Shown: piece after piece, positions 12,597 to 45,357 of the stretch
How positions within the stretch are numbered: position 1 is the first letter of the stretch
Layout: each line of letters starts with the position of its first letter
Assembly: GCA_023262505.1 (NCBI GenBank)
Contig: JALRAP010000001.1
Location: forward strand, 64,343 to 128,342
DNA from: Bacteroidia bacterium
GTDB lineage: Bacteria > Bacteroidota > Bacteroidia > AKYH767-A > OLB10
Direction of reading: 5' to 3'
Length of the DNA stretch: 64,000 nt
Made by a program: the position numbers and the translations under genes
Notes under the pieces: generated by a model
The model's input: only the letters and a program-made list of their open reading frames with translations
Database searches by the model: none
What the model was told of the DNA's origin: nothing

Positions 12597-12613
12597 TTCA
12601 AAAATCATCTCAC

Positions 12614-14299: not shown

Positions 14300-14305
14300 A
14301 AAAGC

Positions 14306-14331
14306 AAAGCCCTTGCAAATGCAAGGGCTTT
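14306..14331. terminator. bidirectional rho-independent terminator hairpin between convergent genes
   Basis: Perfect palindrome aaagcccttgc-aaat-gcaagggcttt with flanking A/T runs on both strands. Confidence 0.6.
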
Positions 14332-14357
14332 GAATCAAATGCCTTTTAAACTAAATA

Positions 14358-14723
14358 TTAGTTTGCACCAGGCTTTTTCTTGCCCACCTTTGGGGCTTCA
14401 GCTGGCGCAGGAGCCGCTTCGGTCTTAGGCTTATCAGATTTTGGTTTAGTGGATGCCTTAGGTTTTGATTTTTCAGCGGCAGCAGTTGCAGCAGCGATTG
14501 AATCCTCAACGGCCTGCTTTGCAGCGTTTGCAATTGAGTCCATCTCACGTTGCTTTGCTGCAGCCTCCTCCATTTCAGCTTCTAGCTTAATTCGCTCAGC
14601 CTCGGCAATGGAATCTTTCATAGCTTGCTCTTGAGCCTGTTTTTCCTCGGCTGAAGGACCGCATGCCACAACGGGCAACAGGAATGCACCTGCGATGGCG
14701 GCAATAATCAAGTTCTTTTTCAT
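14358..14723 (-). CDS. hypothetical Ala/Glu/Lys-rich lipoprotein (low complexity, probably coiled-coil)
   Basis: Signal peptide with lipobox (LLPVVAC) and AEE/AKQ-rich helical repeats; strong coding bias on the minus strand only. Confidence 0.5.
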   Translation of the reverse strand: MKKNLIIAAIAGAFLLPVVACGPSAEEKQAQEQAMKDSIAEAERIKLEAEMEEAAAKQREMDSIANAAKQAVEDSIAAATAAAEKSKPKASTKPKSDKPKTEAAPAPAEAPKVGKKKPGAN

Positions 14724-14844
14724 TTGGTTTGGGTTTTATGATGCCAATTTATCTGATTTTTTCAAACGCAAGGACAAAATCATTATTGTTTGGCTAAATT
14801 TGGGGTGAGTATTGTTGAAACACTAATCCTAAACCTTTATAAAA

Positions 14845-15504
14845 ATGAAAAAACCAAGTTTTTACCTAGCCACCATCATGCTCACCGGATTGAGCCTTAT
14901 GATGGCGTCTTGTGCGAAAGATGACACTACGGCTCCAATCATTACTCTAAATGGAGACTCTGAAATTTCCATTGACTTACAACAACCCTACGTAGAGTTG
15001 GGTGCAACGGCTATCGACGATGAAGACGGCACAGTAACCGTTGAAATCTCAGGAACAGTTGATATCAATCTTAAAGGTCAGTATGTGATAACCTATACTG
15101 CTACTGATGAGGCTGGCAACATTGCCTCTGAAGAGCGCATTGTGAATGTTGTGAATTCCGCTGATTTGTTGGCGGGTGCTTATACCAATGCCGCTGACAA
15201 CTGCAATGCCGGCGGTCCCGCCACATTCAATGCGACCATCTCGGCATCGAACACGCAAAATGGAAAATTCTCCATCTCCAACTTTGGCGCCTTCGGAACA
15301 TCCGTTTCTGTAGATTTGACTTACAACAAGCAAAATCAAACAATTACAGCAACTGGTGGACAATCTCTTGGCGGAGGTGCTGTATTGACCGCTGTTACCA
15401 ACGGACAGTTGTTAAGCCAAAGCCCTGTGTCATTCTCAATCGGCTACACTTGGATTGATTCGGGTGGAGCAACAGATTTTTGTACTTCCACTTACACCAA
15501 GTGA
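14845..15504 (+). CDS. lipoprotein with Ig-like (DUF5011/HYR-like) domain
   Basis: Lipobox LMMASC; PIITLNGDSEISIDLQQPYVELGATAIDDEDGTVTV...YVITYTATDEAGN is the DUF5011 Ig-like pattern. Confidence 0.5.
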   Translation: MKKPSFYLATIMLTGLSLMMASCAKDDTTAPIITLNGDSEISIDLQQPYVELGATAIDDEDGTVTVEISGTVDINLKGQYVITYTATDEAGNIASEERIVNVVNSADLLAGAYTNAADNCNAGGPATFNATISASNTQNGKFSISNFGAFGTSVSVDLTYNKQNQTITATGGQSLGGGAVLTAVTNGQLLSQSPVSFSIGYTWIDSGGATDFCTSTYTK

Positions 15505-15525
15505 CGATTCGCGTTTATTAAAAAC

Positions 15526-15552
15526 AAAGGCTGGCTATTGCCGGCCTTTTTT
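15526..15552 (+). terminator. rho-independent terminator-like hairpin
   Basis: aaaggctggc-tatt-gccggcc followed by a T6 run directly after the 14845-15504 stop. Confidence 0.45.
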
Positions 15553-15630
15553 ATTGGTCAGGGGATAGCTGCTAATTAATTGGTACTGATTATATTTGAA
15601 AAAACAACAAATCCAAAACAACCAAAAAAC

Positions 15631-18600: not shown

Positions 18601-19062
18601 CGCGGGCTTGTTGATCTTTACAGGAACTCATCAGGAGCTGTTTACCCATATACATCCACATACGTAAACATCACGGGATCGAATGCAGGAAGTCCGGGTT
18701 ACTATTATTTCTTCTACAACTGGACTTATACCGAAATCACTTGCAACACATCCCGCACGGAAGTAATCGGAACCGATACCTGTTTTGTTGGTTTGGCTGA
18801 TTTGTTTACCAATGGCAGCATGAATGTGTTCCCTAATCCTACCTCTGGTAAATTCGAAATCTCATTCGAGTCCGCTAACACGCGCGATTTCACCATCAGG
18901 ATCAGTGACCCTACAGGCAAGTCAATTATCAGCGAATCCTTCGAAAGATTCAATGGAGAGTTCAAGAGAAATTACGACTTGAGTAAAATTGCCAAAGGCG
19001 TTTATGTGTTGGAAGTGATTTCCAATGAGAAAACAGTATCTAAAAAGTTGGTTGTCCAATAA
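15631..19062 (+). CDS. secreted BNR/Asp-box repeat beta-propeller protein, paralog of 9177-12596, with PKD domain, a shared ~230-aa module and T9SS C-terminal sorting domain
   Basis: Signal peptide MNNNLKRLMITCLVLMPWLASAQ (the ORF track starts at 15580; in-frame ATG at 15631). Asp-boxes STDAGATW, STDNGATW, STNGGTTW, SNNGGATW, TTNGGTTW, SDQGATW; PKD-like (WSWTFPGGNPSS..VTLVATNGNG); CTD (MNVFPNPTSGKFEISF...VYVLEVISNEKTVSKKLVVQ). Confidence 0.75.
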   Translation: MNNNLKRLMITCLVLMPWLASAQDWVSKMQDPNTNLKEVQQAFEQYKADYISQYRLQNGADPVKVPGEKQFRRWEWFMAPRVGTDGTRFNPAAAFKAGLDYRKQYATANAGNWTFIGPSVVPTGGGGAGRINAVRVHPVDPNILYACSPSGGLWKSEDAGSTWSSNTDQLAQVIGCTDVAIDPTNPNIMYLATGDGDAGDTYSVGILKSTDAGATWNTTGLSYSNASYRQISKILIDPNNTSNIIAASSNGIWRSTDAGATFTNVQSGGFKDMEFKPGDPNTVYAAGTEFYKSTDNGATWTKITSILPAATNVSRIAIAVTPANPAYVYLIIGLPAPNYGTEGFYKSTNSGTTFTKPSTPALGTQQWYDLCIAASPTNADEILLGGQTDFKRSTNGGTTWSQNGGNTHVDYHDVGFTGGTSYYMGSDGGVFYTSNSGGSWTDLSTGLEISQMYGFGQSATTPYLFLQGWQDNGTNRFNGTTWTHVLGGDGMLCFIDRTNNQNMFGEYQNGGLNRSNNGGATWTGITNGINETGPWVTPWMQDPVNATTIYAGFVNVWKSTNLGTSWTKISTFSNTSTVITMAVSPANNQVIWVSKANGVYRTTNGGTTWTLMTGLPAGTITGITCSNTDANKAWITYSGFNNTNKVYKTSDQGATWTNYSAGVPNIPVNCITYVDNSNDAVYIGTDLGVFYRDASLNVWEPFFNGLPNVMVTQLMVFYPTGKLRASTYGRGMWESDLYVPGSYAPTAAFISDKIIDCPGTSVQFTDYSAGSPSSWSWTFPGGNPSSSTQQNPSVVYNTPGTYAVTLVATNGNGTNTAVQNDFITITSSPHPAPSASNAERCGPGPVTLSATGTGLGVLRWWDAPGGGNQIGTGSSIGTTLTGQSTSLWVDEEFPNGLVDFTGESSNGVGAGAFFTANDIRGLYFDVTTPVVLNTVDVYSNSAGDRTIEILDANGNTVVEKIVSIPASPNTLYTVPLNFTLYPGTNYFIKCRGLVDLYRNSSGAVYPYTSTYVNITGSNAGSPGYYYFFYNWTYTEITCNTSRTEVIGTDTCFVGLADLFTNGSMNVFPNPTSGKFEISFESANTRDFTIRISDPTGKSIISESFERFNGEFKRNYDLSKIAKGVYVLEVISNEKTVSKKLVVQ

Positions 19063-19081
19063 AGACTCAATAATAGCAACG

Positions 19082-19111
19082 AAAAAGCCGCGGTAAATCC
19101 CGCGGCTTTTT
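19082..19111. terminator. bidirectional rho-independent terminator hairpin
   Basis: aaaaagccgcgg-taaatc-ccgcggcttttt between convergent genes. Confidence 0.6.
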
Positions 19112-19124
19112 CGTTTTTACAGGA

Positions 19125-21395
19125 TCAGTTACGAATAAATGTTCCTACAGGTTGATGGTTGGCTTTGAACACATATGTTCCGGCTGCAAGAACACTCACA
19201 TCAATATCTCCATGAAAAAAATCCGCTTCAGACTTTGCTGACAGCATAACTCGGCCGGTGATATCGCATATTTCAATGGTTTCAGCGGGTGATTGAGAAT
19301 CCCAATGCAGCATATTTCCTACAGGATTGGGATAATACCAGATAGTTTGTTTGGAGAGTGATTCGGGAACGCTGGTAGGACAGTAATTGGCATAATTCGG
19401 AGTAGTGTTGGTTATCAATGCCCAAGGTCCTGTTCCGTTTGGACAACGGTGCAGGCTTATGTTCGCAAATTGAGCGCCGAATTGTTTGAAATCATATGTG
19501 TTGACCGAATCTGTAAGGTAAACCACCTCGCCCACGCTACCGGATAACTTGAAATTGGCATGTAATTCCGTGGCAGAGGAGGCACGCTCGTCACAAAAAA
19601 CCAAAATAAAGCCGAATGGATTGATGAGCGTTCCCTCGGGGAAAGGCCATTTTCCCAGATTAAGGGCGTTGTCGGACAAATAAAGTCCATCCATGTTCAA
19701 CGTTCCTGATGTATTGTTATAAACCTCGATCCAATCTGAATGTTCGCCATATTGGTTAATGGTATCTACAACGTTAATTGCTAGGATCTCGTTCAAGGCA
19801 ACTTGACCTGCTGCAGCAACTGGCAGAGCTGTATTTAAGGAATAAAATTCATGCTCGGCCCGCTCCGGCGAGAAAATGCCCGCGTTTGTGTTTTCCGCGT
19901 AAACGTAATATTGCATTCGGGCAGAAGTTACCTGGAAAGATGCCCCAAAAAAATTGTCGTTTGCAGCTCCATCGCCATGCTGTCCATCGTCATACATCTG
20001 TAGATAATTAAACTTTTTCCAAGTCGCATCACGATAGCCCATCCGCACCAGATTGGAGTTGGTAACCTGGCATGTAACCGTAACCTGTGATTGATATGCC
20101 GGTAAGCTGTTGGAAACTTGAATGTTTGATATCGATGGAGGAATTGCCGTGAATTGCGATTGCTGTTGCAACCAGGTTGTTCTTGGTCCCATCAATTCCG
20201 ATAGGCCGGGAATGATTCCCATGCCACCTGAAACACCTGTGGTAATGGAGTTTTGGAATTGAGTGTATGAATAAAACTTGTTGGGGTCCGCTTGGACAGA
20301 GGCGTTGATTGCCGACTGAATAGCCTGGGCTTTGTTTACATAACTATTGTTTGCAAAATTCTCGTTGATGATGGTTCGCATGTGTGCCAAGTACCTTCTC
20401 TTATATTCCGGATTTGCAAACAACTTGCTTATCATCGGCTTTTGCAAATTGGTTTCATGAAGCAGAGGCGACATTTGCTGTTCTTGTGTTAATGTCAAAT
20501 TGCCTGTTCCAGTATTAGTGAAGCAACCGAAAGATTCATTCAAATCCCATGAAATCGGGTTGAACCGCTGGTTGTCGTCGCGATACAAATAGTAGTTCTG
20601 CGAAAATCCTCCTGTGTAACTATCCAAATTCACAAGCACGTTGTTGAAAGCCAGCATCCAAAGGGCCCTATCGACATCAAGTTTGTCAATTACAGAATTG
20701 GGATTGTTATTCAAAACATTGATGAAATCTATCAGCTCCGCCCAGCCGAAATCGCTTTTGATCTCGTAACGATTATAGTATAGCGTACTATCCGTACCCA
20801 AATAAGTCAAGTCAGGATTCGCCCCTCCGCCTGGTCCGGCACCTCCAACGGGATTGCATTTGAAAAAGGCGTACCGATCAGACTTGAAATGCTCCATGAC
20901 AAAGCGCTTGTCGATGTTTTCAGCATTCATATAAAGCCCGTACAATACGCCATTGATTCTAACTTCGGCGTGGTTAGCCAGTGGAGCGTGCATATATTGC
21001 CGAAGTATTTCATAGGATAGCGGTTCCCTTACAAATGAAGGATCCTTGAATCCATTAGAAAGCTTTAAGTCGGTGTATCCTTGATAATCCGCATTACCTT
21101 TGATGTAGTTCAACTCAATGTGAAGCGGATTCTTCATATTATTGGCGTTGAAGGAGCTGTTTCCCTTGTATTTAACGCCTACGCTATCGTAAACCACTCC
21201 GTTAATGGTCACTTGTTGAGCAATAATAAAGCTTTCGGAACCAACGGCTGCGGTATCCATCTGATAATCCCAATTGGGCTGGGTGAAAGTGATGCGGATG
21301 TCTTGTACAACGGCAGGGTCATACAGGAAAGGCTGCGCATGAGAATGTAGCGCTGAAGTCACCAACATTAACAATAGCAGAGTGAGTTTTTTCAT
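19125..21395 (-). CDS. CotH-family atypical protein kinase homolog with lamin-tail domain (LTD) and T9SS C-terminal sorting domain
   Basis: Signal peptide; the N-terminal region (NWDYQMD...VKYKGNSS...RINGVLYGLYMNAENIDKRFVMEHF) matches the CotH profile; the LTD-like segment (ALNEILAINVV...HSDWIEVYNNTSGTLNMDGLYLSD...FPEGTLINPFGFILV) and the CTD (YYPNPVGNMLHW...GTYVFKAN) follow. Confidence 0.6.
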   Translation of the reverse strand: MKKLTLLLLMLVTSALHSHAQPFLYDPAVVQDIRITFTQPNWDYQMDTAAVGSESFIIAQQVTINGVVYDSVGVKYKGNSSFNANNMKNPLHIELNYIKGNADYQGYTDLKLSNGFKDPSFVREPLSYEILRQYMHAPLANHAEVRINGVLYGLYMNAENIDKRFVMEHFKSDRYAFFKCNPVGGAGPGGGANPDLTYLGTDSTLYYNRYEIKSDFGWAELIDFINVLNNNPNSVIDKLDVDRALWMLAFNNVLVNLDSYTGGFSQNYYLYRDDNQRFNPISWDLNESFGCFTNTGTGNLTLTQEQQMSPLLHETNLQKPMISKLFANPEYKRRYLAHMRTIINENFANNSYVNKAQAIQSAINASVQADPNKFYSYTQFQNSITTGVSGGMGIIPGLSELMGPRTTWLQQQSQFTAIPPSISNIQVSNSLPAYQSQVTVTCQVTNSNLVRMGYRDATWKKFNYLQMYDDGQHGDGAANDNFFGASFQVTSARMQYYVYAENTNAGIFSPERAEHEFYSLNTALPVAAAGQVALNEILAINVVDTINQYGEHSDWIEVYNNTSGTLNMDGLYLSDNALNLGKWPFPEGTLINPFGFILVFCDERASSATELHANFKLSGSVGEVVYLTDSVNTYDFKQFGAQFANISLHRCPNGTGPWALITNTTPNYANYCPTSVPESLSKQTIWYYPNPVGNMLHWDSQSPAETIEICDITGRVMLSAKSEADFFHGDIDVSVLAAGTYVFKANHQPVGTFIRN

Positions 21396-21503
21396 TTTGA
21401 TTATGGTTGAGTTAATCCAATCTTATCGCCAAGTTAAGCGATTAAGTCTTGCTTTTGACAAATACAACAACAAAAGGCTTAACCTTATTGAAAAATAAAT
21501 CTT

Positions 21504-21848
21504 TCAGAAAAAATAAGGCATCTTACTGGATTGCTTCCAACCAGCTTGGCTTTCATAATCCACAAAAAACACCTTCACCTCGGCTTGGCTCTCATACTTG
21601 ACAAAATAAATCTTCTTGTCGGCTTGGCTAGCGTACTTGACAAAAAACCACCGGCCATCATTTTTACCCGCTTGGCTTTCATATTTGACCTTGTAGACTT
21701 TTAGGTCGGCTTGGCTCTCGTAGTCAACCACAAAGACTTTCACATCGGCTTGGCTTTCATAATCGACGCTGAAAACCTTTTGAGCATTGGCATCATTGCT
21801 TGCCGCAAATAATATGAAGAGCCAGATGGCTGTATAGGCAAATTTCAT
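21504..21848 (-). CDS. small secreted tandem-repeat protein (six 13-16 aa units, consensus [VK]-[DK]-Y-[EA]-S-Q-A-[DEG]-x-K-[VI]-[FY]-[FK]-V)
   Basis: Signal peptide MKFAYTAIWLFILFAASNDANA, then VDYESQADVKVFV / VDYESQADLKVYKV / KYESQAGKNDGRWFFV / KYASQADKKIYFV / KYESQAEVKVFFV / DYESQAGWK; encoded by in-frame 39-nt DNA repeats. Confidence 0.6.
   Translation of the reverse strand: MKFAYTAIWLFILFAASNDANAQKVFSVDYESQADVKVFVVDYESQADLKVYKVKYESQAGKNDGRWFFVKYASQADKKIYFVKYESQAEVKVFFVDYESQAGWKQSSKMPYFF
21541..21790. repeat. tandem direct repeat, six units of 39 nt (one of 48 nt), core tcggcttggct[ct]tc[ag]ta
   Basis: Units start near 21541, 21580, 21619, 21667, 21706 and 21745 on the plus strand; they lie entirely inside the 21504-21848 CDS and preserve the reading frame. 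Confidence 0.7.
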
Positions 21849-21899
21849 TGGATGTATAAAAATAAGGGGCCGGCTGTAGCCGACCCCTTGATTGTTGAT

Positions 21900-24635
21900 T
21901 TATTGCAGCTTGATTAGTTTATCAAAATATACTCCGCTTGGTGTACGAAGCTCCATCATGTAAGAGCCAGGCGCGAAATTCAGATTGATTTTGTTCTTCA
22001 TTTGCGCAAACTCATAACGAGCCACTTCAGAACCCAATTGGTTGTACATGATCAACTCGGCAGCTGGTATTGGATTGGCGAATTCAACATACAACATTTC
22101 GCCTGCAGGGTTAGGATAAACAGAAACTGCCGCGGCGGCAAAGTTTTCACCCACTGAGGAATACAAATAAGGCAACGAAGATGTGGTACAACCATTTGCC
22201 GCGGTAACCACAACCGTATATAATCCGGCTCCTGTCAAGGCCATGTCATGCGAGATTCCAGTTGCACCTGGAATAATGTTGCCATTCAAATACCATTGGT
22301 TTCCTGATGGAGAAGAAGAGCTCAGCACCGTTCCAAGTGTATTGATAATTGGAACAGGTGGTGCTGGATTGATAACACCGGTTACAGGCACACGGTTGCT
22401 TTTACAGCCCTCCGTGATTTGCCAATTGTAAAAGAAATAATAGAAGTTAGTAGTGCTGGGTGTGGGGTTGTAAAAGCCCGTAATTGAAACCGAGCTTCCA
22501 GGGAATGTGTATGGATAAGATGCGCCGAAAGAGTTGTAATACAAAGGCACGCTGGTAGCGTCAAGCTCCAATGTATAACCAACTCCTGGATTGATGGTCC
22601 AACCAATTGTAATCGGCTGCAGTCCTGAGAAGGCAATCACATTCACTGTTTTGGTGTTCAATATTGCACCACCAATAGCCGAGCGCATATTTATGGTGAT
22701 AGGCCCTGATGTTCCTCCTGGAGAAATATAAACTCGATCCAATGTAACAGTTTGGGTAACGTCGAATGTCAATCCCCAGTTGCTACCCGTAACAGGGAAC
22801 TGGGTGCCAATAGCACCACTTGCAGGACCAACATTATATGTTCCACCTGCGGAAGCTTCAACATAATAAGTGGTGGTGGTCCCGATGGTTGGGGAATATG
22901 TGTTACCTACATTAATACTATTTCCACCGGTTGGAGCCGTATACCAATCAAGCACTCCAACACCGCTTGCTGAAAGGTTGACGACTCCGCCCCCACAAAT
23001 GGTATCATTAACCGTTAATGGATCTGTAACTGCCAAGACTGTCAAATCCAGAACGGATGTAATCACAGGTGCACATCCGCCACTTGTAACAACCGCTCGG
23101 TATTGAACAGTGGTGGTGGGAGATACCAAATACTGGCCCGTATTGTAACCCGTTCCAATTTCGTTAACCCATCCGGAACCCGTGTTGCTTTGCCATTGGA
23201 TGTTACCGGTATTTCCCGTAAGAAACAAGGTGGCATTACTACCCAAACAAATGGTATCGGTTGAGATTACAGCTGTACCGGCAACAGAGGCGGGACCAAC
23301 ATCCACCAACAAGCTGTCGATGTAGCCACACAATCCATCATTACTAACCAAAGTATAAACAGTAGGAACCGATGGTGTGGCTGTAACTGAAGCCCCTGTT
23401 GAAGCGCTCAAACTTGAAGATGGACTCCATGAGTAGGTGTAATTGGGATTGTTGCTAACAGCACTCAGTGTTGTGGATTGCCCAGAACATAAAGCAGGAG
23501 GGTTGGCCGAAATAGTTGCAGTTGGCGCGGGAATAACGGTAGCAACAGTTGGGGTTCGTGGACTCTCGCAACCGGTTTCATAGGTAATTTCAAGACGCGA
23601 AATACTACCGCCTGCCTCTTGCCAGATAGTTTGTGGCAGGTTGGTGGCTAAAGGCAGTTGCATACCCATTCGGGTGAGAGTTACTGAGGTGCCGTTGATG
23701 GTGGTGGTTGCTGGGGAAGGCGCATAAGAATTGATATCACCAGGTCCACGAGTAGCCAACACGCCAATAACCTCGCCTGCTAGAATTGGGATGTTTACCG
23801 GAATAACTCCTGTGGATGGATCATTCTGGGTAACAAAAAGTGTTGCAAAGGCATTGGTGGTGGTGGCATAAAGAGGCGGAGGGATGTTATTATCGAAACG
23901 AATTACTGCTATATTCTGTAATGTTCCATTGTTACCTGGCACGAACAATCCTGTAATCGTGAAATCGGTAGGCGCAGTAAAGAAATACCCTCTGGCGTTG
24001 CCCGAAAAGGTGGAAGCCTGTGCTGGCATAGGCGTTGTGCTTGCACCACCGGTAGAAGTTGCCGCAGCACAATAGAAGGTGGTAGTGGAAGCCACATTGG
24101 TGGTAAGCGATTGACCTGTTGAGATCGGCGTCGGACTGGTAGGGCTATCATACCATTTGAAAATACCATTACCTACAGCGTTCAAAGTGACCGGGCCATA
24201 TCCGCAGCGGGATGCGCCTTGTGTTGCTGGAGCAGACACGCCCACTGTTATGGTAACAATATTGGAAGTGTCGGGCGTACAGCCAACCGCCGTCACAACT
24301 GCGCGATAATCTTTGGTGGCAGCAGGTGTAACTGCATAGTTGTCGGTAGTTGATCCAACACCTACTTCATTTATCCAAGCAGAGCCGTTGAAACTTTGCC
24401 ACTGGATTGCGCCGATGTAATTGGCCAAGGTGAGTGTTGTAATACCATTAGGACAAATGGAGTCGACGGTAGCCGATGCCGTGCCTGCATCGGAGCATGC
24501 TTGCGCAGAAGAAACCTGCATCAATGCAAACGAGAACAACACCAGCGCGTATTTAAACAGTTTGGTAAAAATTTGTTTCATGTGATAATGTGTGTGTGGT
24601 TGTAAATAAGATTCTATGCTATCAAAGTAAAACAA
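21900..24635 (-). CDS. secreted multi-domain protein with duplicated Ig-like (IQWQS) domains, duplicated CG-x-G-x-V-x-L ... YYFFYNW module and T9SS C-terminal sorting domain
   Basis: Signal peptide; the two-fold internal super-repeat (ACSDAGTASATVDSICPNGITTLTL..IQWQSFNGSAW.. and ..AVISTDTICLGSNATLFL..IQWQSNTGSGW..) is followed by CTD VSVYPNPAGEMLYVEF...GSYMMELRT. Confidence 0.65.
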   Translation of the reverse strand: MFYFDSIESYLQPHTHYHMKQIFTKLFKYALVLFSFALMQVSSAQACSDAGTASATVDSICPNGITTLTLANYIGAIQWQSFNGSAWINEVGVGSTTDNYAVTPAATKDYRAVVTAVGCTPDTSNIVTITVGVSAPATQGASRCGYGPVTLNAVGNGIFKWYDSPTSPTPISTGQSLTTNVASTTTFYCAAATSTGGASTTPMPAQASTFSGNARGYFFTAPTDFTITGLFVPGNNGTLQNIAVIRFDNNIPPPLYATTTNAFATLFVTQNDPSTGVIPVNIPILAGEVIGVLATRGPGDINSYAPSPATTTINGTSVTLTRMGMQLPLATNLPQTIWQEAGGSISRLEITYETGCESPRTPTVATVIPAPTATISANPPALCSGQSTTLSAVSNNPNYTYSWSPSSSLSASTGASVTATPSVPTVYTLVSNDGLCGYIDSLLVDVGPASVAGTAVISTDTICLGSNATLFLTGNTGNIQWQSNTGSGWVNEIGTGYNTGQYLVSPTTTVQYRAVVTSGGCAPVITSVLDLTVLAVTDPLTVNDTICGGGVVNLSASGVGVLDWYTAPTGGNSINVGNTYSPTIGTTTTYYVEASAGGTYNVGPASGAIGTQFPVTGSNWGLTFDVTQTVTLDRVYISPGGTSGPITINMRSAIGGAILNTKTVNVIAFSGLQPITIGWTINPGVGYTLELDATSVPLYYNSFGASYPYTFPGSSVSITGFYNPTPSTTNFYYFFYNWQITEGCKSNRVPVTGVINPAPPVPIINTLGTVLSSSSPSGNQWYLNGNIIPGATGISHDMALTGAGLYTVVVTAANGCTTSSLPYLYSSVGENFAAAAVSVYPNPAGEMLYVEFANPIPAAELIMYNQLGSEVARYEFAQMKNKINLNFAPGSYMMELRTPSGVYFDKLIKLQ

Positions 24636-27893: not shown

Positions 27894-28811
27894 CTACAAA
27901 TTATCCGTAACACTATTCCACACCATCACAGAACGGTCGTCGGAGGCGGAAATCAACTGATTGCTGCCTTCATGCCAAACGATCTTATTGACGGAGTTGA
28001 CATGGCCCATGGAGCGCTCCTTGTCTATGCGTTGCATCACCTCAAAAGTATTGGCATTCCAGATTTTGATGGTTTTGTCGCGACTTGCCGTGGCAAATAC
28101 CAATCCGTCGGAATGATATTCGATACTGTAAATGGCATAATTGTGTGCAGGAATATCATGCACCAATTCAAAACCATTGGCGACATCATGGACTTTTAAC
28201 ATGGCATCCCTAGAGCCCGACAAAAGCCATCTTCCATCGGGAGAGAACGTAACAGCATTGGCTGAATAACCGGGCAAATGAGCTTGCCAACTGGCCACCA
28301 CCTCCATCCCCGGAAGGGAGAAAATGCGGATAACACCATCTCCCGACCCAAGTGCCATCAAGTTTTTTTCTGGGTTTACCGATATACCCCTCAACTTACC
28401 TCCGCCGAGGGTGAAAACTTTTTGAAGTTTCAGTTCAGCATCATCAAACACACCCAATTCACCATCACCCGCAAGGGAAATCACCATTTGAAATTGAGGA
28501 ATATGCACTAAATTGAAGACCGCAGAGCGATGGTACTGTAATAAACGCTCCTCTTTTCGACTGGCAAGATCAATCACATGGATGCCGCCCGAGGCTTGTC
28601 CTACCAACAGTTTACCCGATGGCAATTGAAGCAAAGAGTAAACAATATCGCTGGTTTTCACCAAGACGTTGCCTTCTTCGGGTTTTTGCAAATCCCACTC
28701 TGCGACCAGTCGATCGCTGCCCGCTGAGAAAAGCCCGCTATCACCAAATGGCAACAAGGCATATACCGAGCCCGTATGTCCGGCCAATACCGCATGTTTT
28801 TCAATTCTCAT
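27894..28811 (-). CDS. WD40-repeat beta-propeller protein
   Basis: Repeated GH..SVYAL / SGS.D..LKVWD-type WD motifs across 305 aa. Confidence 0.6.
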   Translation of the reverse strand: MRIEKHAVLAGHTGSVYALLPFGDSGLFSAGSDRLVAEWDLQKPEEGNVLVKTSDIVYSLLQLPSGKLLVGQASGGIHVIDLASRKEERLLQYHRSAVFNLVHIPQFQMVISLAGDGELGVFDDAELKLQKVFTLGGGKLRGISVNPEKNLMALGSGDGVIRIFSLPGMEVVASWQAHLPGYSANAVTFSPDGRWLLSGSRDAMLKVHDVANGFELVHDIPAHNYAIYSIEYHSDGLVFATASRDKTIKIWNANTFEVMQRIDKERSMGHVNSVNKIVWHEGSNQLISASDDRSVMVWNSVTDNL

Positions 28812-30102: not shown

Positions 30103-31776
30103 TCAGAACATACTCAAAGGCATATCCTTGTTGTGTGTGACTTCGTATATGAATTTGAGCGATTTATAGGTTTTGTTTTCCATCTTGAAATCCCATACCA
30201 GTGATCCGGTTGCTGCGTTGTAATCTGCCTTGTCGGCGTCTTTCAATTCCACTTTTATCTCCTTAATGCTGGATACGGGGATTTGGTCTTCCACTTTCAA
30301 ATTGATAGGCCTACCCTTATTGCTCTTAATTCGAAGCTCATATGCGACGGTCCTGGTAATATCAGTCCCCAATAATTTGTTGGATTCCTTATCCTTCAAC
30401 CTAGTGCGTGTTACAGTAATGGCTTGGTCGCGACCCATGGCTAAATCCAATGTATCGTTGATTACGTTAGGGTTGATTACCGTTTGACCCACATAAGTTC
30501 CATCGTAGAATAGATTGGCGTTGCCTGGCAAAAGGTTCAGGTTTTCCCATCCGGTTACACGGGCTAACAAGAATGCCTCGCTCTCGATTTTTGGAACCAG
30601 GTAGTGAATATAATTTGCGGAAAGGCTTTCGGTTTTAACGGCTACAACATGACTGTTTCCATCTGAAGGGATGTCGTAATCTAGTTTGATCGCAAATTCA
30701 ACATTGGCCATGGTTTCAACAATCTGCGAATAGTTGGCAGCTGATTCAGCTGGACTTAGCTCCATCAAACGCTTAGACATAACTTCTTCCATGTCTTTTG
30801 TAATGTATCCCGCATTGTCTGCTGACTGTGGTCTGGCACCACGGGCCGAACCAGTAACAGTAGCGCGTTGTGCAGTATAATAGTTGATATACCAAATGGG
30901 TAATGAAGGTTTGATATGACTGCGATTCGGGTTGGATGTGCTGAGTTTTATGCGAACATTTTTCCAATCTTCGCCGGTGCTTTGGTAAACATTGGCCTTG
31001 TAGGTAAGTTTTACGGGCTCAGTTGTGTTGGATGCACGCAAATCGTATGACGGTGTCCAACCGGCAGCAGAAACCATGTAACTCAGTTCCACCACTCCTG
31101 TTGCAGGAGCATCCGCACTAATGGTAACCACAACTTGATTATCTGGTTGGTATGGTTTTTCGGGCTCTGTGTCGCCTTTGTAAGCGCGTAACTCATTAAG
31201 CTTCTGTGTGACTTCATTTGATGCAGCTTCTAACTGGAATTTATCACGCTTGGCTTTTGAAATGAGCGTGTTTAGCTCTCCTAGTCTCTTGTGAAAAAAC
31301 TCCATCGCTTTTATCAAAACCTCTAATGAGTCGCTCTTGCCTTCTCCTTTGGCGAGTTTGTTTTTCACTATCATATCCTTTTCCAAGCTCAGGGATGCCA
31401 AACGTTCAGCGATTTCGGATTCTCTGAAATCCAACTCGGTTAATGAATCCTCAAGCTGTTCTATTTGTTTGGTGATGGCTTTGGGAACCGCAGGCGTTTT
31501 TACCGGCTCTGGGTACTTTACTCTGTGTTTGACATCCGTTACAACGAATGCTCCTTTACCTCCTGCTTGGATGCTTGCAGGGTTAATACCTTGGGTAAGC
31601 CCGGTAAACACTAAATGTGTGATGCCCGTCCCAACGGAAATATTGGTGGTGCGGAATACCTGAGCGCCTTGCGTGAAAACAGTTACACGCTCAACATTGG
31701 ATTTTACAGGTTTTTCGTCGGCGAAGGTGCTGGTGGTTGACAATAGCAATCCACAAGCGATGATCAGCTTTTTCAT
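30103..31776 (-). CDS. DUF4139/DUF4140 (mucoidy-inhibitor MuiA-like) family secreted protein
   Basis: Signal peptide; N-terminal VERVTVFTQGAQVFRT pattern, a coiled-coil middle, and a beta-rich C-terminal half, which together are typical of this ~550-aa Bacteroidota family. Confidence 0.55.
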   Translation of the reverse strand: MKKLIIACGLLLSTTSTFADEKPVKSNVERVTVFTQGAQVFRTTNISVGTGITHLVFTGLTQGINPASIQAGGKGAFVVTDVKHRVKYPEPVKTPAVPKAITKQIEQLEDSLTELDFRESEIAERLASLSLEKDMIVKNKLAKGEGKSDSLEVLIKAMEFFHKRLGELNTLISKAKRDKFQLEAASNEVTQKLNELRAYKGDTEPEKPYQPDNQVVVTISADAPATGVVELSYMVSAAGWTPSYDLRASNTTEPVKLTYKANVYQSTGEDWKNVRIKLSTSNPNRSHIKPSLPIWYINYYTAQRATVTGSARGARPQSADNAGYITKDMEEVMSKRLMELSPAESAANYSQIVETMANVEFAIKLDYDIPSDGNSHVVAVKTESLSANYIHYLVPKIESEAFLLARVTGWENLNLLPGNANLFYDGTYVGQTVINPNVINDTLDLAMGRDQAITVTRTRLKDKESNKLLGTDITRTVAYELRIKSNKGRPINLKVEDQIPVSSIKEIKVELKDADKADYNAATGSLVWDFKMENKTYKSLKFIYEVTHNKDMPLSMF

Positions 31777-31919
31777 GTTTTTGATTTTAAGAGTTAATTT
31801 GGTCCGAAACGCGCCTGATATGCTGGCGCAACGGACTATAGATGTGGGTACCGTTCAGATTCCACACAAACCATTGAAAGTTTTTTGGGGATTGAAGAAA
31901 GCGGGCTTGAATTTGCCTC

Positions 31920-32879
31920 TTAGCTTTGAGCCAAAGCGTAATAAATAGGCATCCCGATGGTAATATTGAACGGGAATGTAAGTCCTAGTGCCATGGGAAT
32001 ATAAAGCCCAGGGTCGGCTTTGGGCGCTGCTATGCGCATAGCGGCGGGAACGGCAATGTAAGAGGCGCTGGCAGCCAATACCGCCAAAATAAAACGATTG
32101 CCAACATCATCAGTAACCAGTGAACTTGCCCATGCCACACAACATCCGTTTATGGCAGGAATGATGATGGAGAATGCGCTTAGGAAGAACCCATATTGTT
32201 TGAAAGCATAGAACCGCTTGGCTGTTACCATCCCCATTTCGAGCAGGAAGATGGCCAAAAAGCCTTTGAAAATATCGGTTGTGAATGGTTTGATGCCTTC
32301 TGCTTGCTTGGTATCAGCAATGAGCCCAATCACCAAACTTCCCAGAATAAGTAAAACACTCCCATTGGTGAAAGAATGCTTGATGGTATCTTTTAGGTTT
32401 CCGGTGGAACGCGCTTCTGAATCATACCGCATCATCAATATGACACCAATGATGATGGCAGGCGACTCCATCAGAGCCATGATGGCTACCATGTGACCTC
32501 CAAAATCCAGTCCTTGGCCTTCCAAAAAGGTGGCAGCCGCCACGAAAGTCACAGCACTTACGGATCCATAGGTGGCAGCAACGGCGCCTGCGTTGCTAAC
32601 CGACATGCGCTTTTTGAGGATGAAAAACGTATAAAATGGAATGAGTGCTGCTACCGTTATTCCGAATATGATGGAATAGAATATTTCACTGGTGAATGGG
32701 GTTAAGGCTAGCTCCTGACCCCCTTTGAATCCAATGGCAAATAGTAGATATAGGGAAATGAATTTACTAGAAGATGCGGGAATCTCCAGATCACTCTTCA
32801 CGTTGGCTGCTATGATTCCCAAAACAAAGAACAGCAGCGTGGGGTTGGTAATGTTGGAAATCAGGATTTGGAAATCCAT
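31920..32879 (-). CDS. SbtA-like (DUF897) sodium-dependent bicarbonate transporter family permease
   Basis: 319 aa, ~10 TM segments; the N-terminal ILISNITNPTLLFFVLGIIAANVKSDLEIP..ISLYLLFAIGFKGG resembles the SbtA family. Confidence 0.5.
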   Translation of the reverse strand: MDFQILISNITNPTLLFFVLGIIAANVKSDLEIPASSSKFISLYLLFAIGFKGGQELALTPFTSEIFYSIIFGITVAALIPFYTFFILKKRMSVSNAGAVAATYGSVSAVTFVAAATFLEGQGLDFGGHMVAIMALMESPAIIIGVILMMRYDSEARSTGNLKDTIKHSFTNGSVLLILGSLVIGLIADTKQAEGIKPFTTDIFKGFLAIFLLEMGMVTAKRFYAFKQYGFFLSAFSIIIPAINGCCVAWASSLVTDDVGNRFILAVLAASASYIAVPAAMRIAAPKADPGLYIPMALGLTFPFNITIGMPIYYALAQS

Positions 32880-33170
32880 GTCTTACAGAGGGTTTAATCA
32901 ATCACAAACCGCAAAATTAGGTACTGACCTCTATTGAGCAGCTTAAATGCATCTAATTTTAATCTGGCCGTATTCCGAAATTTTTTGGCTCAAAAGGGAC
33001 TTTGTTAATCATTGAATTCAGACCCTTCAATAAACTTTATACTACAAAAAACGAACTTTTGGCTAAATAGTCCTATGTCTTGTTAGAATAATCTTCTTTT
33101 TGTCAGAAATCTGTAAAAACAATTCAAAGTTTCGCTTTGTTGAACATGCATAACTTAAATCATAAACAAA

Positions 33171-33887
33171 ATGGAACATTTAACAATTGGTAGTGACAAC
33201 TACGTAGCGTTTACCTTCTTTATAGGTACTATGGCTATGATGGCGGCTTCTGTGTTCTTCTTCTTCGAGTTGAGCAACACGTCGCAAAAGTGGCGCACTT
33301 CTGTGTTGGTATCAGGATTGATCACCTTCATTGCGGCTGTGCATTATTATTACATGCGTGGTTACAACTTGGAAACAGGTGAATCACCCACATTCTTCCG
33401 TTACGTGGATTGGATTCTCACAGTTCCACTCATGTGCGTTGAATTCTATTTGATCACACGCAAAGCTGGAGCCAAAATCGCTTTGCTTTGGAAGCTGATC
33501 TTTGCATCCCTGGTGATGTTGGTAACCGGCTACATCGGTGAAACAATCGACCGCGATGGAAGCGTATTGTGGGGCGTCATTTCTGGTGCCGCATACTTCT
33601 ATATAGTATATCTGATTTGGTTTGGCGAAGTAGCGAAATTGGCAACCACCGCTGGAACACAAGTTGCAAAAGCTACACGCACATTGGCATGGTTCGTACT
33701 TGTGGGCTGGGCTATCTATCCGCTCGGTTATATCTTGGGAACACCAGGTGGTTTGTTCGGTGCACAGCTAGTTGCTGATCCTGCCGCTGCATCGCACGCC
33801 ATGGATATAGTTTATAACATTGCTGACGCGGTAAACAAGATCGGATTTGGTCTTGTGATATATGCTTTGTCCCGTACCGAAGATTAA
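33171..33887 (+). CDS. proteorhodopsin (light-driven proton pump, DTE motif, predicted green-absorbing)
   Basis: 7-TM protein. Helix C has RYVDWILTVPLMCVEFYL (D80, T84, E91 give a DTE H+-pump motif; Met88 corresponds to PR tuning position 105). Helix F has WAIYPLGY and helix G has DAVNKIGFGL (D219 counterion, K223 Schiff-base lysine). Confidence 0.85.
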   Translation: MEHLTIGSDNYVAFTFFIGTMAMMAASVFFFFELSNTSQKWRTSVLVSGLITFIAAVHYYYMRGYNLETGESPTFFRYVDWILTVPLMCVEFYLITRKAGAKIALLWKLIFASLVMLVTGYIGETIDRDGSVLWGVISGAAYFYIVYLIWFGEVAKLATTAGTQVAKATRTLAWFVLVGWAIYPLGYILGTPGGLFGAQLVADPAAASHAMDIVYNIADAVNKIGFGLVIYALSRTED

Positions 33888-33904
33888 TTCCTCTCTTAAT
33901 TGAA

Positions 33905-33945
33905 GCCGGAGGCTCGTCTGTATAGACTAGCCTCTGGCTTTTATC
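33905..33945 (+). terminator. rho-independent terminator-like hairpin downstream of the rhodopsin gene
   Basis: gccggaggctcgtc-tgtata-gactagcctctggc, a 14-bp stem with 2 mismatches, followed by tttt. Confidence 0.5.
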
Positions 33946-34014
33946 CTATAGTCAAGTACCTTTTCCGATCAACCGATAATTAATCTCACCAAAACTGCCT
34001 AAACAGTACTGAAA

Positions 34015-34977
34015 TTGAACAACGAATTGCATTTACGCAGATTGATGACACTGGTGATTATCGCAATGGGCGTATTTACATCCGCCTTAGGTGAGCAAGC
34101 GTCATTTGTACTTGCAATCTCATTGATTTGCCTGATTGGCATTCCTCATGGTGCAACCGATCACCTTTTATTCTTTTCAATCGCACAAAACATGCCAGGT
34201 GATAGACACAAAATACAGTTGCGGTTCTACGCCACTTATTTGGGTATAATGGCAGCTTATGGTTTCCTATGGTATCTTTCCCCTCAGCTATCCTTTTTAC
34301 TATTCATTATAGTTTCATTTTATCACTTTGGCCAGGAAAACCTGAAAGCCTTCCGCTGGAAATCACCGTACTTGAAATATATATCATTCATGGTCTCCGG
34401 TTTTTTTTTGCTGGCCACTCCCCTTTTGGCTGATATGGATTCCGCCTTGCCCATAATCAAATCCATTATGGGATTAAACGACAAGATATTTGTAAACACA
34501 CAACAATGTCGTCAGCTTTCATATGCAGTTGGAATAATTTACGGCTTTTTCATAGTCGCTCTCATGATGTCTCGTAATATCGGTATTGGTGCTGGCACAA
34601 AGGAATTGATCAATTGTGCCATATTGTTTTCCTTGTTCGTTTCCACTCCATTGATGATGGGCTTTGCAGTCTACTTTTCATTGTGGCATGCGCTACCTTC
34701 AATTATCGAGCAAATAACCTTTCTAAAAATAAAACAGGTTAAATATAATTTCAAGAGCCATGTTAGGAACTTGGCCCCTTACACTTTACTGAGTATAATA
34801 GGTATATTCATTGGATTGTACATGCTTGACAACAGTTCTTTGTCGGCCAAAACCGGCATTGGATTTATGTTCCTATCAATTATTACTCTTCCTCACATCA
34901 TTTTAATGGACAAGTTTCATGAAATGAGTGCGGAAAAATCCATTGTTGGAGAAAATCAGCCCTACGCAGCTGTATAG
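34015..34977 (+). CDS. blh: Brp/Blh-family beta-carotene 15,15'-dioxygenase (retinal synthesis)
   Basis: 320 aa polytopic membrane protein with the GIPHGATDH motif and further conserved His residues (FYHFGQEN, LWHALPS); it sits immediately downstream of the rhodopsin, as in other PR photosystems. Confidence 0.75.
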   Translation: MNNELHLRRLMTLVIIAMGVFTSALGEQASFVLAISLICLIGIPHGATDHLLFFSIAQNMPGDRHKIQLRFYATYLGIMAAYGFLWYLSPQLSFLLFIIVSFYHFGQENLKAFRWKSPYLKYISFMVSGFFLLATPLLADMDSALPIIKSIMGLNDKIFVNTQQCRQLSYAVGIIYGFFIVALMMSRNIGIGAGTKELINCAILFSLFVSTPLMMGFAVYFSLWHALPSIIEQITFLKIKQVKYNFKSHVRNLAPYTLLSIIGIFIGLYMLDNSSLSAKTGIGFMFLSIITLPHIILMDKFHEMSAEKSIVGENQPYAAV

Positions 34978-35065
34978 AAAACCTTGGGGTTGTTTCGGGA
35001 AAATCCTTCCTGATTATTTTTATAAATCGACTTTCCTACTTTTGCTTCAACTTTTCCAATTCAAC

Positions 35066-35467
35066 ATGGACAAAATTGAGCATTTAGGTATCGCCGTTAA
35101 AGACCTAAAAACCGCAGGTGAAACCTACACAAAACTTTTAGGCAAACCACCCTACAAGACGGAATCAGTGGAAAGCGAAGGAGTGAACACGATGTTTTTC
35201 GAGACTGGCGAGAGTAAAATCGAATTGTTGGAGGCCACAAATGCAGATAGTCCCATTGCACGCTTCATAGATAAAAAGGGAGAAGGCATACATCATATCG
35301 CCTTCGCGGTTTCCGACATTCGGTCAGAAATGAAACGGCTGGAATCCGAAGGTTTCACCCTGCTGAATTCAGAGCCCAAGATAGGAGCTGACAATAAATG
35401 GGTCTGTTTCTTACACCCTAAAAACAGTCATGGTGTTTTAGTAGAACTCTGCCAAGACCGGGGGTAG
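35066..35467 (+). CDS. methylmalonyl-CoA epimerase (VOC/glyoxalase superfamily)
   Basis: MDKIEHLGIAVKDL...GEGIHHIAFAVSDI...HGVLVELC. The ORF track starts at 34928, but the upstream part overlaps the blh end and lacks coding character. Confidence 0.65.
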   Translation: MDKIEHLGIAVKDLKTAGETYTKLLGKPPYKTESVESEGVNTMFFETGESKIELLEATNADSPIARFIDKKGEGIHHIAFAVSDIRSEMKRLESEGFTLLNSEPKIGADNKWVCFLHPKNSHGVLVELCQDRG

Positions 35468-35486
35468 GCGCTTATGAATCATCGAC

Positions 35487-36143
35487 CTAATGATGGTCGT
35501 CGCCATAAATTTTGAATGTCCTTTTGATAGTAGAAACAATGGTAGTTGCTACTATCGCTCCGAGAAAAGCCAGGAAGATATCCTTTTGCGCATCCCAGAT
35601 ATCGCCTTGAGTTCCAAGATAGGCATCGCCTTGGGCTTTGAAAAAGATATCGGCAACTGCCCACTCAATCAATTCATAAAATGCGCTTATCGACATGGTG
35701 ATCTCGATAGGCAATACCCATGAAGCAGTTGGGGGATATTTGAGCCATCGCAAAAACAATTCCCGCATTGGATATGCCAGTAAGAATCCGAAGGAAAAGT
35801 GGACGATACGATCGTAATGGTTTCGAGAGGTGTTGAACACTTCCATCAACCAAAAACCAAAAGGATTTTCAGCATACGTGTATTTGGAGCCATATACATG
35901 CAAACACATGTAAACGCATATCAGTAAATAAGAAAGATCGCTGAATTGGTATTTACGAAATGTGATAAAGAGGAATACTACGAAAATAACCGTCAACGTG
36001 TTTTCTAGCATCCAATTGGCCATGTCTGTTGTGCCAATGAAGGTGCTGATCCATATGACTGAAAAGACAGCGAGAAACGCCATCAGCCAACGGTTTTGTT
36101 TGAATGGCGAACGGTAGTTGGAAATTGCTATGGTAAATCCCAT
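35487..36143 (-). CDS. hypothetical membrane protein (DUF2238-like)
   Basis: 218 aa, ~6 TM helices. Confidence 0.4.
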   Translation of the reverse strand: MGFTIAISNYRSPFKQNRWLMAFLAVFSVIWISTFIGTTDMANWMLENTLTVIFVVFLFITFRKYQFSDLSYLLICVYMCLHVYGSKYTYAENPFGFWLMEVFNTSRNHYDRIVHFSFGFLLAYPMRELFLRWLKYPPTASWVLPIEITMSISAFYELIEWAVADIFFKAQGDAYLGTQGDIWDAQKDIFLAFLGAIVATTIVSTIKRTFKIYGDDHH

Positions 36144-43815: not shown

Positions 43816-45357
43816 ATGAATCACAAAATCAAACAGTTAGATGACAAGACCTCCGCAGCTTTACAAGGTGGGGGCGCAAAGCGGATAGAGGCACAGCACA
43901 AGAAAGGCAAGCTTACAGCTCGCGAACGCTTGCATTTCCTGCTAGACGAAGGCTCATTTGAGGAAATCGGGATGCTGGTTACTCATCGCTCCCGCGACTT
44001 CGGCCTCGATAAGGAAGTATATCCCGGCGACGGCGTTGTAACGGGCTATGGAACCATACACGGACGATTGGTTTATGTGTACTCCCAAGACTTCACCGTT
44101 TTTGGTGGATCCCTTTCTGAGACACATGCCCAGAAAATCTGCCGCATAATGGATTTGGCCATGCAAAACGGAGCACCTGTTATTGGTTTGAATGACTCTG
44201 GAGGCGCACGTATCCAAGAAGGTGTTGTTTCACTTGGCGGTTATGCCGATATCTTTTACCGAAATACCCTTGCATCAGGAGTAGTGCCGCAAATTAGCGC
44301 CATTATGGGACCCTGCGCTGGCGGAGCCGTATACTCGCCTGCCATAACCGACTTCATCATGATGGTGGAAAACACTTCCTACATGTTTGTTACAGGGCCC
44401 AATGTTGTAAAAACTGTTACACACGAAGAAGTTACGTCGGAAGAATTAGGCGGTGCATCTACCCACTCAACCAAATCAGGTGTTACTCATTTTTCATGTG
44501 CCAATGAGATTGAGTGCATCAACAACATCAAAACGCTGCTGAGTTATATCCCTTCCAATTGCGAAGACGAGCCCCCATTCATACCATATGACGCAACTGA
44601 TGAAACACGTACGGCTCTTCAAAGCATTATACCTGATAACCCGAATCAACCATACGACATTCGTGAGGTGATAAACCATGTGATTGATGAAGGAAGCTTT
44701 TTCGAAGTGCACAAGAATTTCGCCGAGAATATCGTGGTGGGATTCGCTCGAATCGGTGGTAGGAGCATCGGCGTAGTGGCCAACCAACCGGCTTTCCTGG
44801 CAGGTGTGCTCGACATCCATGCCTCTACAAAAGCTGCACGATTCGTCAGGTTCTGCGACTCATTCAATGTTCCGTTGTTAGTCTTTGAAGATGTCCCAGG
44901 ATTCCTTCCCGGTACCGACCAAGAATGGAATGGCATCATAACCAATGGCGCCAAACTTCTATATGCATTCTGCGAAGCAACAGTGCCGCGCATCACAGTA
45001 ATCACCCGTAAAGCATACGGTGGTGCTTATGATGTAATGAACTCGAAACACATCGGCGCCGACATGAACTATGCATGGCCTACTGCTGAAATCGCCGTAA
45101 TGGGAGCCAAAGGCGCTGCGGAAATCATCTTCCGAAAGGAAATCAGTGAAGCAGCCCAACCAGAGGTAAAACTGAAGGAAAAAGAAAAAGAATACACGGA
45201 TATGTTTGCCAACCCTTATAAAGCCGCTGAGCGTGGCTATGTGGATGAGGTGATCCGTCCGGAAGAAACCCGCCAAAAACTGATCAAAGCCTTCAAGATG
45301 CTCGAGAACAAAGTGGCGAACCTGCCCAAGAAAAAACACGGAAACATTCCACTTTGA
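43816..45357 (+). CDS. acyl-CoA carboxylase carboxyltransferase subunit (propionyl-CoA carboxylase beta / methylmalonyl-CoA carboxyltransferase family)
   Basis: 513 aa; [28 protein letters not shown] and a tandem crotonase-like fold. Confidence 0.85.

Follow-up and report, generated by a model that had tools for sequence, protein, structure and literature searches.

A proteorhodopsin gene and its neighbouring blh gene in a freshwater member of the Bacteroidia: a predicted green-absorbing proton pump with a plausible carotenoid antenna

The DNA analysed here is a 64,000-nucleotide (nt) stretch of contig JALRAP010000001.1 from a freshwater Bacteroidia bacterium, referred to below as the window; all coordinates are positions in it. 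Two adjacent genes on the forward strand, a proteorhodopsin (PR) gene and a blh gene, are the subject of this report. The PR gene (33171-33887, +) starts with ATG and encodes 238 residues followed by a stop codon; its product is predicted to absorb green light and to use it for pumping protons outward. A first-pass annotation of the sequence had called a 238-residue rhodopsin open reading frame (ORF) at this place, and the ORF is present there. The three motifs that it quoted were located by script at residue 77 (RYVDWILTVPLMCVEFYL), residue 180 (WAIYPLGY) and residue 219 (DAVNKIGFGL). The blh gene (34015-34977, +), assigned a TTG start with alternatives at 34027 (TTG) and 34045 (ATG), encodes a 320-residue protein of the Brp/Blh family and lies directly downstream, as had also been described, on the same strand and 127 nt after PR. 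PR residues are numbered by the 238-residue ORF and Blh residues by the 320-residue ORF. The two genes very probably form a rhodopsin phototrophy module of a freshwater member of the Bacteroidota, in which a PR pump is combined with the dioxygenase that would supply its retinal and probably with a carotenoid antenna. Such PR and Blh pairs have long been known from Bacteroidota, and this one is an ordinary, well-conserved and uncharacterised member of an abundant freshwater clade.

The PR protein matches the Pfam family Bac_rhodopsin (PF01036; E-value 1.3e-42, residues 13-234), and no NCBIfam model matched it. Its best sequence match in the PDB is NM-R1 of Nonlabens marinus (9JOV/9JOU; E-value 3e-89), with which it shares 144 of 224 aligned residues (64%). 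The next matches are the blue PR (BPR) Med12 (4JQ6; 2e-53), GPR (7B03, 8CNK and 2L6X; ~1e-49) and the blue PR HOT75 (1e-45). Chains of the xanthorhodopsin family (XR, GR and Kin4B8) match more weakly, with E-values from 1e-29 to 7e-23, and the Na+ and Cl- pump chains match at ~1e-11 to 1e-12. Overall identity to GPR of eBAC31A08 (2L6X, 7B03) and to the blue PRs (4JQ6, 4KLY) is 38-42%. Neither NM-R1 nor the window protein has an N-terminal signal peptide, a feature that sets the window PR apart from GPR and BPR. The host of NM-R1, N. marinus S1-08, is marine, whereas the source of the window PR is freshwater; proton pumping and the binding of myxol and zeaxanthin have been measured for NM-R1, whereas the window PR is known from its sequence alone.

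The AlphaFold2 model of PR, built with 42 clade sequences, has a mean pLDDT of 83 and a pTM of 0.81. It contains seven long helices (residues 8-36, 39-69, 74-97, 103-126, 128-160, 163-190 and 204-234). In a Foldseek search against the PDB, the top matches are all rhodopsins with TM-scores of at least 0.8. Zeaxanthin-bound NM-R1 (9jou_A) ranks first with TM-scores of 0.85 and 0.88; GPR and BPR come next. Among the individual comparisons, GPR 7B03 gives TMq/TMt values of 0.83/0.90 and the BPR chains 4JQ6 and 4KLY give 0.74-0.85/0.85-0.92, while the nuclear magnetic resonance model 2L6X reaches just 0.69/0.70. Identities in the structural alignments are 41-61% for NM-R1, GPR and BPR and 27-30% for the chains of the XR family. 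The scores of the PDB sequence search and the structural ranking alike place the window protein nearer to PRs than to xanthorhodopsins.

Relatives of PR are numerous. The protein database holds thousands of them, the 120 best being 87-97% identical to the window protein. In a scan of species-representative genomes, at least 590 genome contigs with a PR relative were found; the best 80 of these are referred to as loci L001-L080, and their proteins together with the window PR make up a clade alignment of 81 sequences. The PRs of these best 80 loci share 85-96% amino-acid identity with the window protein. Almost all of them come from freshwater metagenome-assembled genomes (MAGs) labelled Bacteroidota, and they are spread over several orders, with labels that include Chitinophagaceae, Ferruginibacter, Sediminibacterium, Flavobacteriales, Crocinitomicaceae, Saprospiraceae and Sphingobacteriales.

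At the DNA level, identity of the PR genes of L001-L080 to the window gene is 36-54% at codon position 3 and 80-98% at positions 1 and 2, and the GC content at third codon positions ranges from 0.20 to 0.62. Third codon positions are thus near saturation while the protein remains 85-96% identical. PR is therefore under very strong purifying selection, which in turn shows that the gene is functional. Recent horizontal transfer, considered as a source of such high identity across orders, was ruled out because the synonymous sites are near saturation. The MAGs of loci L002, L004, L035, L061 and L069 are labelled Methylotenera, Bifidobacterium, Synechococcus, Competibacteraceae or Polynucleobacter; off-taxon labels of this kind on contigs with a Bacteroidota-type PR most likely reflect mis-binning or wrong labelling, not transfer.

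HMMER alignments of the window PR to GPR, BPR and NM-R1 are free of gaps across helices C and G, so that the columns of the Asp-Thr-Glu (DTE) motif, of the spectral tuning position 105 and of the retinal-binding lysine are in register. In helix C, D80 (codon 33408-33410), T84 (33420-33422), M88 (33432-33434) and E91 (33441-33443) are equivalent to D97, T101, L105 and E108 of GPR. In helix G, D219 (33825-33827) and K223 (33837-33839) are equivalent to D227 and K231. Additionally, H58 (33342-33344) corresponds to GPR H75 and R77 (33399-33401) to GPR R94, such that all mechanistic residues of GPR (H75, R94, D97, T101, E108, D227 and K231) are common to the window protein. The DTE motif of NM-R1 is formed by D87, T91 and E98. 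The reading of D80, T84 and E91 as a DTE triad, rather than the NDQ or NTQ triad of other ion pumps, and of K223 and D219 as the Schiff-base lysine and the second counterion, both made in the first-pass annotation, agrees with these alignments. H58, R77, D80, T84, M88, E91, G135, W180, Y183, Y187, D219, N222 and K223 are invariant in 81 of the 81 clade sequences. The assignment of the gene product as a DTE-motif proteorhodopsin is thus supported by motif and similarity, and proton pumping is its predicted activity.

Two other assignments of the rhodopsin were weighed. Several public records title close homologues 'sensory rhodopsin', and Na+-pumping (NaR) and Cl--pumping (ClR) paralogues are also possible in flavobacteria (PMC4831467), so that a sensory function or the transport of an ion other than the proton might be envisaged. 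These titles, however, are automatic labels, and the motif of the window PR is DTE, not NDQ or NTQ, with E91 in place as carboxylic proton donor and H58 as the histidine specific to PRs. The matches to PR structures (E-values 1e-89 to 1e-46) stand far above those to NaR and ClR, no transducer-like gene was found beside PR in Pfam scans of the window ORFs, and NM-R1, the closest characterised relative, pumps protons. Motif and similarity led us to reject a sensory rhodopsin and a Na+ or Cl- pump, both of which we regard as highly improbable. Membership of the xanthorhodopsin family, in place of the proteorhodopsin family, is just as improbable. The protein does share the DTE motif and a fenestration glycine (see below) with XR, GR and Kin4B8, and its fold matches theirs at TM-scores of ~0.8. 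However, its E-values of 1e-89 to 1e-46 to PR structures compare with 1e-23 to 1e-29 for XR, GR and Kin4B8, Foldseek places NM-R1, GPR and BPR ahead of the XR-family chains at clearly higher identity, and H58, the equivalent of GPR H75, is present. The protein is accordingly treated below as a proteorhodopsin.

The residue at the tuning position had been given as Met, and M88 indeed aligns to L105 of GPR and to the Gln at position 105 of BPR Med12. Published surveys class Met at this position together with Leu as green-absorbing and Gln as blue-absorbing (PMC5864233, PMC4831467), and nearly all PRs of Bacteroidota have Met there (bioRxiv 10.1101/2024.11.08.622755), including NM-R1. Judged by the single criterion of position 105, green absorption is a reasonable prediction for the window PR.

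The first-pass account of the PR residues was borne out, with one omission: it overlooked the glycine at the fenestration position. A carotenoid antenna requires a fenestration, provided by a Gly at XR position 156; GPR has a Phe there and binds no carotenoid (bioRxiv 10.1101/2022.08.24.505090). Zeaxanthin or lutein binds to two fenestrated PRs, KR1 and EinA29G6, with an energy transfer of 35-40% (bioRxiv 10.1101/2022.08.24.505090), and cryo-electron microscopy structures of NM-R1 contain bound myxol and zeaxanthin (bioRxiv 10.1101/2024.11.08.622755). NM-R1 numbering is window PR numbering plus 7, as verified on D87 and E98. The window protein has G135 (codon 33573-33575) at this position, equivalent to XR G156, NM-R1 G142 and Kin4B8 G153, in place of the Phe of GPR. 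The tyrosine that contacts the carotenoid ring is also retained (Y187, codon 33729-33731; NM-R1 Y194, XR Y207, Kin4B8 Y204), as are T191 (NM-R1 T198, Kin4B8 S208), invariant in the clade like Y187, and A181 (NM-R1 Ala188). Because G135 occupies the fenestration position, a xanthophyll antenna is plausible in the window PR.

KR1 of Dokdonia eikasta and EinA29G6 of an uncultured freshwater flavobacterium are, like the window protein, Bacteroidota PRs with a DTE motif and a Gly at XR position 156 (Chazan et al., bioRxiv 10.1101/2022.08.24.505090; PMC12308411). The comparison with these two proteins is based on four published residues of transmembrane helix 6. At the positions of Kin4B8 204, 205 and 208, the window PR has Tyr, Ile and Thr, as does EinA29G6. 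At the position of Kin4B8 209, the window PR has a proline (Pro192), as does NM-R1, whereas EinA29G6 has Glu and KR1 has Asp.

The surroundings of the fenestration differ from those in NM-R1. The ring-pocket residues W139, L143, M195, W201 and Y202 of NM-R1, the first two of which flank G142, are replaced by V132, V136, I188, G194 and L195. The loop between helices F and G is seven residues longer than in NM-R1, and the insertion follows L195, the equivalent of NM-R1 Y202. The segment between Y187 and Y215 (window 33729-33815) thus contains 27 residues, compared with 15-20 in most representatives of the PR family; the nearest full-length one has 20. The loop is modelled as coil with pLDDT values of ~59-73. 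With a pocket and a loop that differ from those of the only solved PR-carotenoid complex of Bacteroidota, the window PR is a reasonable candidate for probing how general that binding mode is. Moreover, the glycine that permits an antenna is carried by an abundant freshwater clade of extremely conserved PRs, so that light harvesting with the help of carotenoids may be widespread among the Bacteroidota of lakes.

The assignment of the downstream gene to the Brp/Blh family holds under both family models, each of which scores above its curated cut-off. The Pfam family BCD (PF15461) matches with an E-value of 1.3e-52 and 179.6 bits (cut-off 28) over profile positions 3-266 of 267, and the NCBIfam model TIGR03753 ('beta-carotene 15,15'-dioxygenase, Brp/Blh family') matches with 165.5 bits (cut-off 95.25). 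The protein is polytopic, with at least eight hydrophobic segments in a Kyte-Doolittle scan; nine transmembrane helices are predicted for the characterised Blh of 66A03 (bioRxiv 10.64898/2026.08.06.743266). The GIPHGATDH motif quoted previously begins at residue 42. Conserved histidines are H45 in the PHGA motif (codon 34147-34149), the additional H50 (34162-34164), H104 in YHFG (34324-34326), H225 in WH (34687-34689) and H294 in PH (34894-34896). These five are invariant in 58-61 of the 61 Blh domains from related loci.

Blh of the uncultured marine bacterium 66A03 (Q4PNI0) belongs to the same family (PF15461/TIGR03753) and is likewise a polytopic membrane protein. The window Blh has the same series of histidine motifs (HGAxD, HFG, a histidine late in the transmembrane region, and PH), spaced as H21, H78, H188 and H256 are in 66A03. 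From motif and spacing, and not from a computed alignment to Q4PNI0, we infer that H45, H104, H225 and H294 correspond to these four residues. Replacement of H21, H78 or H188 of 66A03 by Ala leaves less than 5% of the activity, as summarised in a passage of PMC9227343 on the work of Kim et al. (2009), and H256 has been proposed to complete the iron plane as its fourth ligand (bioRxiv 10.64898/2026.08.06.743266). In contrast to 66A03, the window protein has the extra invariant H50 and is ~40 residues longer.

Blh-like ORFs were detected in 60 of the 80 related loci. The orthologue in L001 is 57% identical to the window Blh and has 318 residues, with the N-terminus conserved from residue 4. Since L001 conserves the equivalents of E4-R9, a start at or near TTG 34015 is favoured over ATG 34045. 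Elsewhere in the related loci, Blh identity is 22-34%, compared with 85-96% for PR.

The arrangement of the window is not the most frequent one in the clade. A CrtY-like domain adjoins PR in 58 of the 80 related loci. In the locus where the fusion was checked (L007:10806-12818, +), it forms part of a 670-residue CrtY-Blh fusion with matches to Lycopene_cycl (7.6e-45) and BCD (4.3e-32). This locus, which represents the majority arrangement, has a PR that is 92% identical to the window PR, a Blh domain on the same strand adjoining PR and a hairpin after PR, but the gene downstream of PR encodes the fusion, whereas the window has a stand-alone Blh. A stand-alone Blh with no CrtY-like sequence nearby is found in the window and in L001, L004, L009, L019 and L030. 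The two arrangements form a natural pair for comparing the ways in which the final steps towards retinal are packaged beside PR. A search of the literature on bacterial CrtY-Blh fusions brought up nothing specific to freshwater Bacteroidota.

The region between the two genes contains, 15 nt past the PR stop codon, a terminator-like stem-loop (33902-33941, +) followed by a short run of T residues up to 33945. Its folding energy is -28 kcal/mol, with a z-score of -6.3 relative to 200 shuffled sequences. An automated terminator scan overlooked this hairpin owing to its stem and loop limits, and direct folding revealed it. No other copy exists within the window, and the element is thus not a dispersed repeat. 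Hairpins with a T-run, of unrelated sequence, stand at the same position after PR in L001, L004, L007, L009 and L019, and the element looks like a conserved terminator or attenuator. Upstream of PR, a 291-nt intergenic region (32880..33170) separates the gene from a divergent SbtA-like gene and presumably contains the promoter. An Rfam scan of 32700-35200 returned one chance-level match (snoU13, E-value 0.95) and no riboswitch or known RNA.

Taken together, gene identity, residue equivalences, fold, selection and gene order, all of which are established in this analysis, fit a phototrophy module that would operate as follows. Beta-carotene, made by crt genes encoded elsewhere, would be cleaved at its 15,15' bond by Blh, acting as an iron-dependent membrane dioxygenase, to yield two molecules of all-trans retinal. 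Retinal would be joined to K223 as a protonated Schiff base, with D80 and D219 as counterions, R77 nearby and H58 as the partner of D80. Green light would isomerise the retinal, the proton of the Schiff base would pass to D80 and a proton would be released outside, and E91 would reprotonate the Schiff base from the cytoplasmic side. The net outward pumping of protons would supplement the proton-motive force. The window PR probably also binds a hydroxylated, zeaxanthin-like carotenoid of the cell as a blue-light antenna, as NM-R1, KR1 and EinA29G6 do. The hairpin past PR suggests an abundant PR mRNA and a lower expression of blh, either by read-through or from a promoter not recognised here. 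Like pumping, colour and antenna binding, this transcription pattern is a prediction. The source organism would thereby be a likely rhodopsin photoheterotroph, as many aquatic Bacteroidota are, which is unsurprising.

Several observations weigh against parts of this interpretation. A source of beta-carotene is encoded neither in the window nor in ~7 kb of additional upstream sequence. The lack of crt genes in the window had been stated in the first-pass annotation and is upheld by Pfam scans of the non-overlapping window ORFs of at least 150 residues, in which no crt gene was found, and by a six-frame tblastn of the window with the CrtY domain of a related locus, which gave no match. Each ORF left out of the Pfam scans overlaps a scanned gene that lies on the other strand or is read in a different frame, and the intergenic gaps are too small for a crt gene. 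The upstream sequence, on contigs found through the ExbB (61072-61878) and RadA (2698-4083) genes of the window, encodes AIRS, GlmS, BamH, PanC and PanD and contains no crt genes. The carotene pathway must therefore be encoded elsewhere in the genome. In Blh, Ser229, four residues past H225, takes the place of His192 of 66A03, an Ala mutant of which retains less than 5% activity in the same summary of Kim et al. (2009; PMC9227343); in relatives the residue here is Gly, Ala or Ser. His192 is probably not family-defining, because a 2026 preprint places it outside the iron plane (bioRxiv 10.64898/2026.08.06.743266). No promoter was recognised for PR or blh in the upstream region or in the spacer between the genes: the Bacteroidota -7 box (TAnnTTTG) is absent from both, and a scan for sigma-70-type promoters gave just weak, near-chance matches, on the minus strand of the region upstream of PR. 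Finally, the exchanged ring-pocket residues and the longer F-G loop of low model confidence make antenna binding less certain than pumping; the exchanged residues are those that define the pocket of NM-R1, not that of the whole family.

PR and blh could be independently transcribed neighbours and not one co-regulated unit, or the Blh-family protein could serve a role other than the supply of retinal to PR. Points in favour are the strong hairpin with a T-run between the genes, the recurrence of this arrangement in five related loci, the fast divergence of Blh (57% identity in L001 and 22-34% elsewhere, with PR at 85-96%), salt tolerance as an unrelated phenotype reported for a Brp/Blh homologue in a passage of PMC4110020, and the ability of Blh to cleave other carotenoids (bioRxiv 10.64898/2026.08.06.743266). 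However, the adjacency and co-orientation of PR and Blh recur across orders of Bacteroidota, and the histidines of the iron site are invariant. Blh families are typically 10-30% identical overall (bioRxiv 10.64898/2026.08.06.743266), so the divergence is no sign of lost function, and separate transcription would leave the functional coupling of the two proteins unchanged. On balance, we consider this alternative unlikely. The first-pass description of the pair as a complete two-gene unit thus stands in so far as the opsin and the last step of retinal synthesis are both present; a single operon is not shown, given the strong hairpin between the genes. A more speculative possibility, to which we would give little weight, is that the clade has kept the fenestration glycine together with a remodelled carotenoid site and a clade-specific F-G insertion of ~7 residues, so that an antenna carotenoid would be bound differently from the solved marine complexes, or a different carotenoid would be bound, with the strong purifying selection reflecting the constraint of two chromophores. 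The module of a PR pump and a retinal-forming Blh with a probable antenna remains the favoured interpretation.

The genes that flank the pair were assigned with Pfam and NCBIfam models. Upstream, on the minus strand, lie a gene for a DUF4139/DUF4140 protein and the SbtA-like gene (31920-32879, -), which encodes a transporter of the Na+-dependent bicarbonate transporter superfamily (PF05982, E-value 5e-115). The latter is adjacent to PR and divergent from it. Loci L001 and L060 also have homologues of it no more than a few kb from PR, and bicarbonate uptake may be linked to light. Directly downstream of blh is a gene for methylmalonyl-CoA epimerase (35066-35467, +; TIGR03081), followed on the minus strand by genes for a DUF2238 protein and an acyltransferase. 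The ORF listed for the epimerase has a GTG start at 34928 that overlaps blh and is probably wrong, and the orthologue in L001 starts at the equivalent of 35066. A gene for an acyl-CoA carboxyltransferase beta subunit (43816-45357, +) lies 8 kb beyond the epimerase gene.

The gene order in the window (30103-36143) is DUF4139, Sbt, the PR-blh pair, epimerase and DUF2238. The corresponding region of L001 (2727-10980) has the order DUF4139, PR, blh, a small ORF, a protein of the type IX secretion system (T9SS), Sbt, epimerase and DUF2238. The flanks are therefore syntenic between the two, with 77-87% protein identity, but the PR-blh pair occupies a different place, which indicates that a local rearrangement has shifted the pair as a block.

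Further features were observed elsewhere in the window. The region 9177-24635 encodes a series of very large, secreted proteins that carry C-terminal sorting domains of the T9SS; the series includes two Sortilin/BNR and PKD proteins of ~1150 residues, a protein with a CotH kinase domain and a lamin-tail domain, and a protein with Ig_7 repeats. A 305-residue bacterial WD40 beta-propeller protein is encoded at 27894-28811 (-), beside a rhomboid protease gene. A single 828-residue ORF at 49134-51620 (-), an apparent gene fusion, joins Mur ligase domains to a complete alanine racemase (N- and C-terminal domains).

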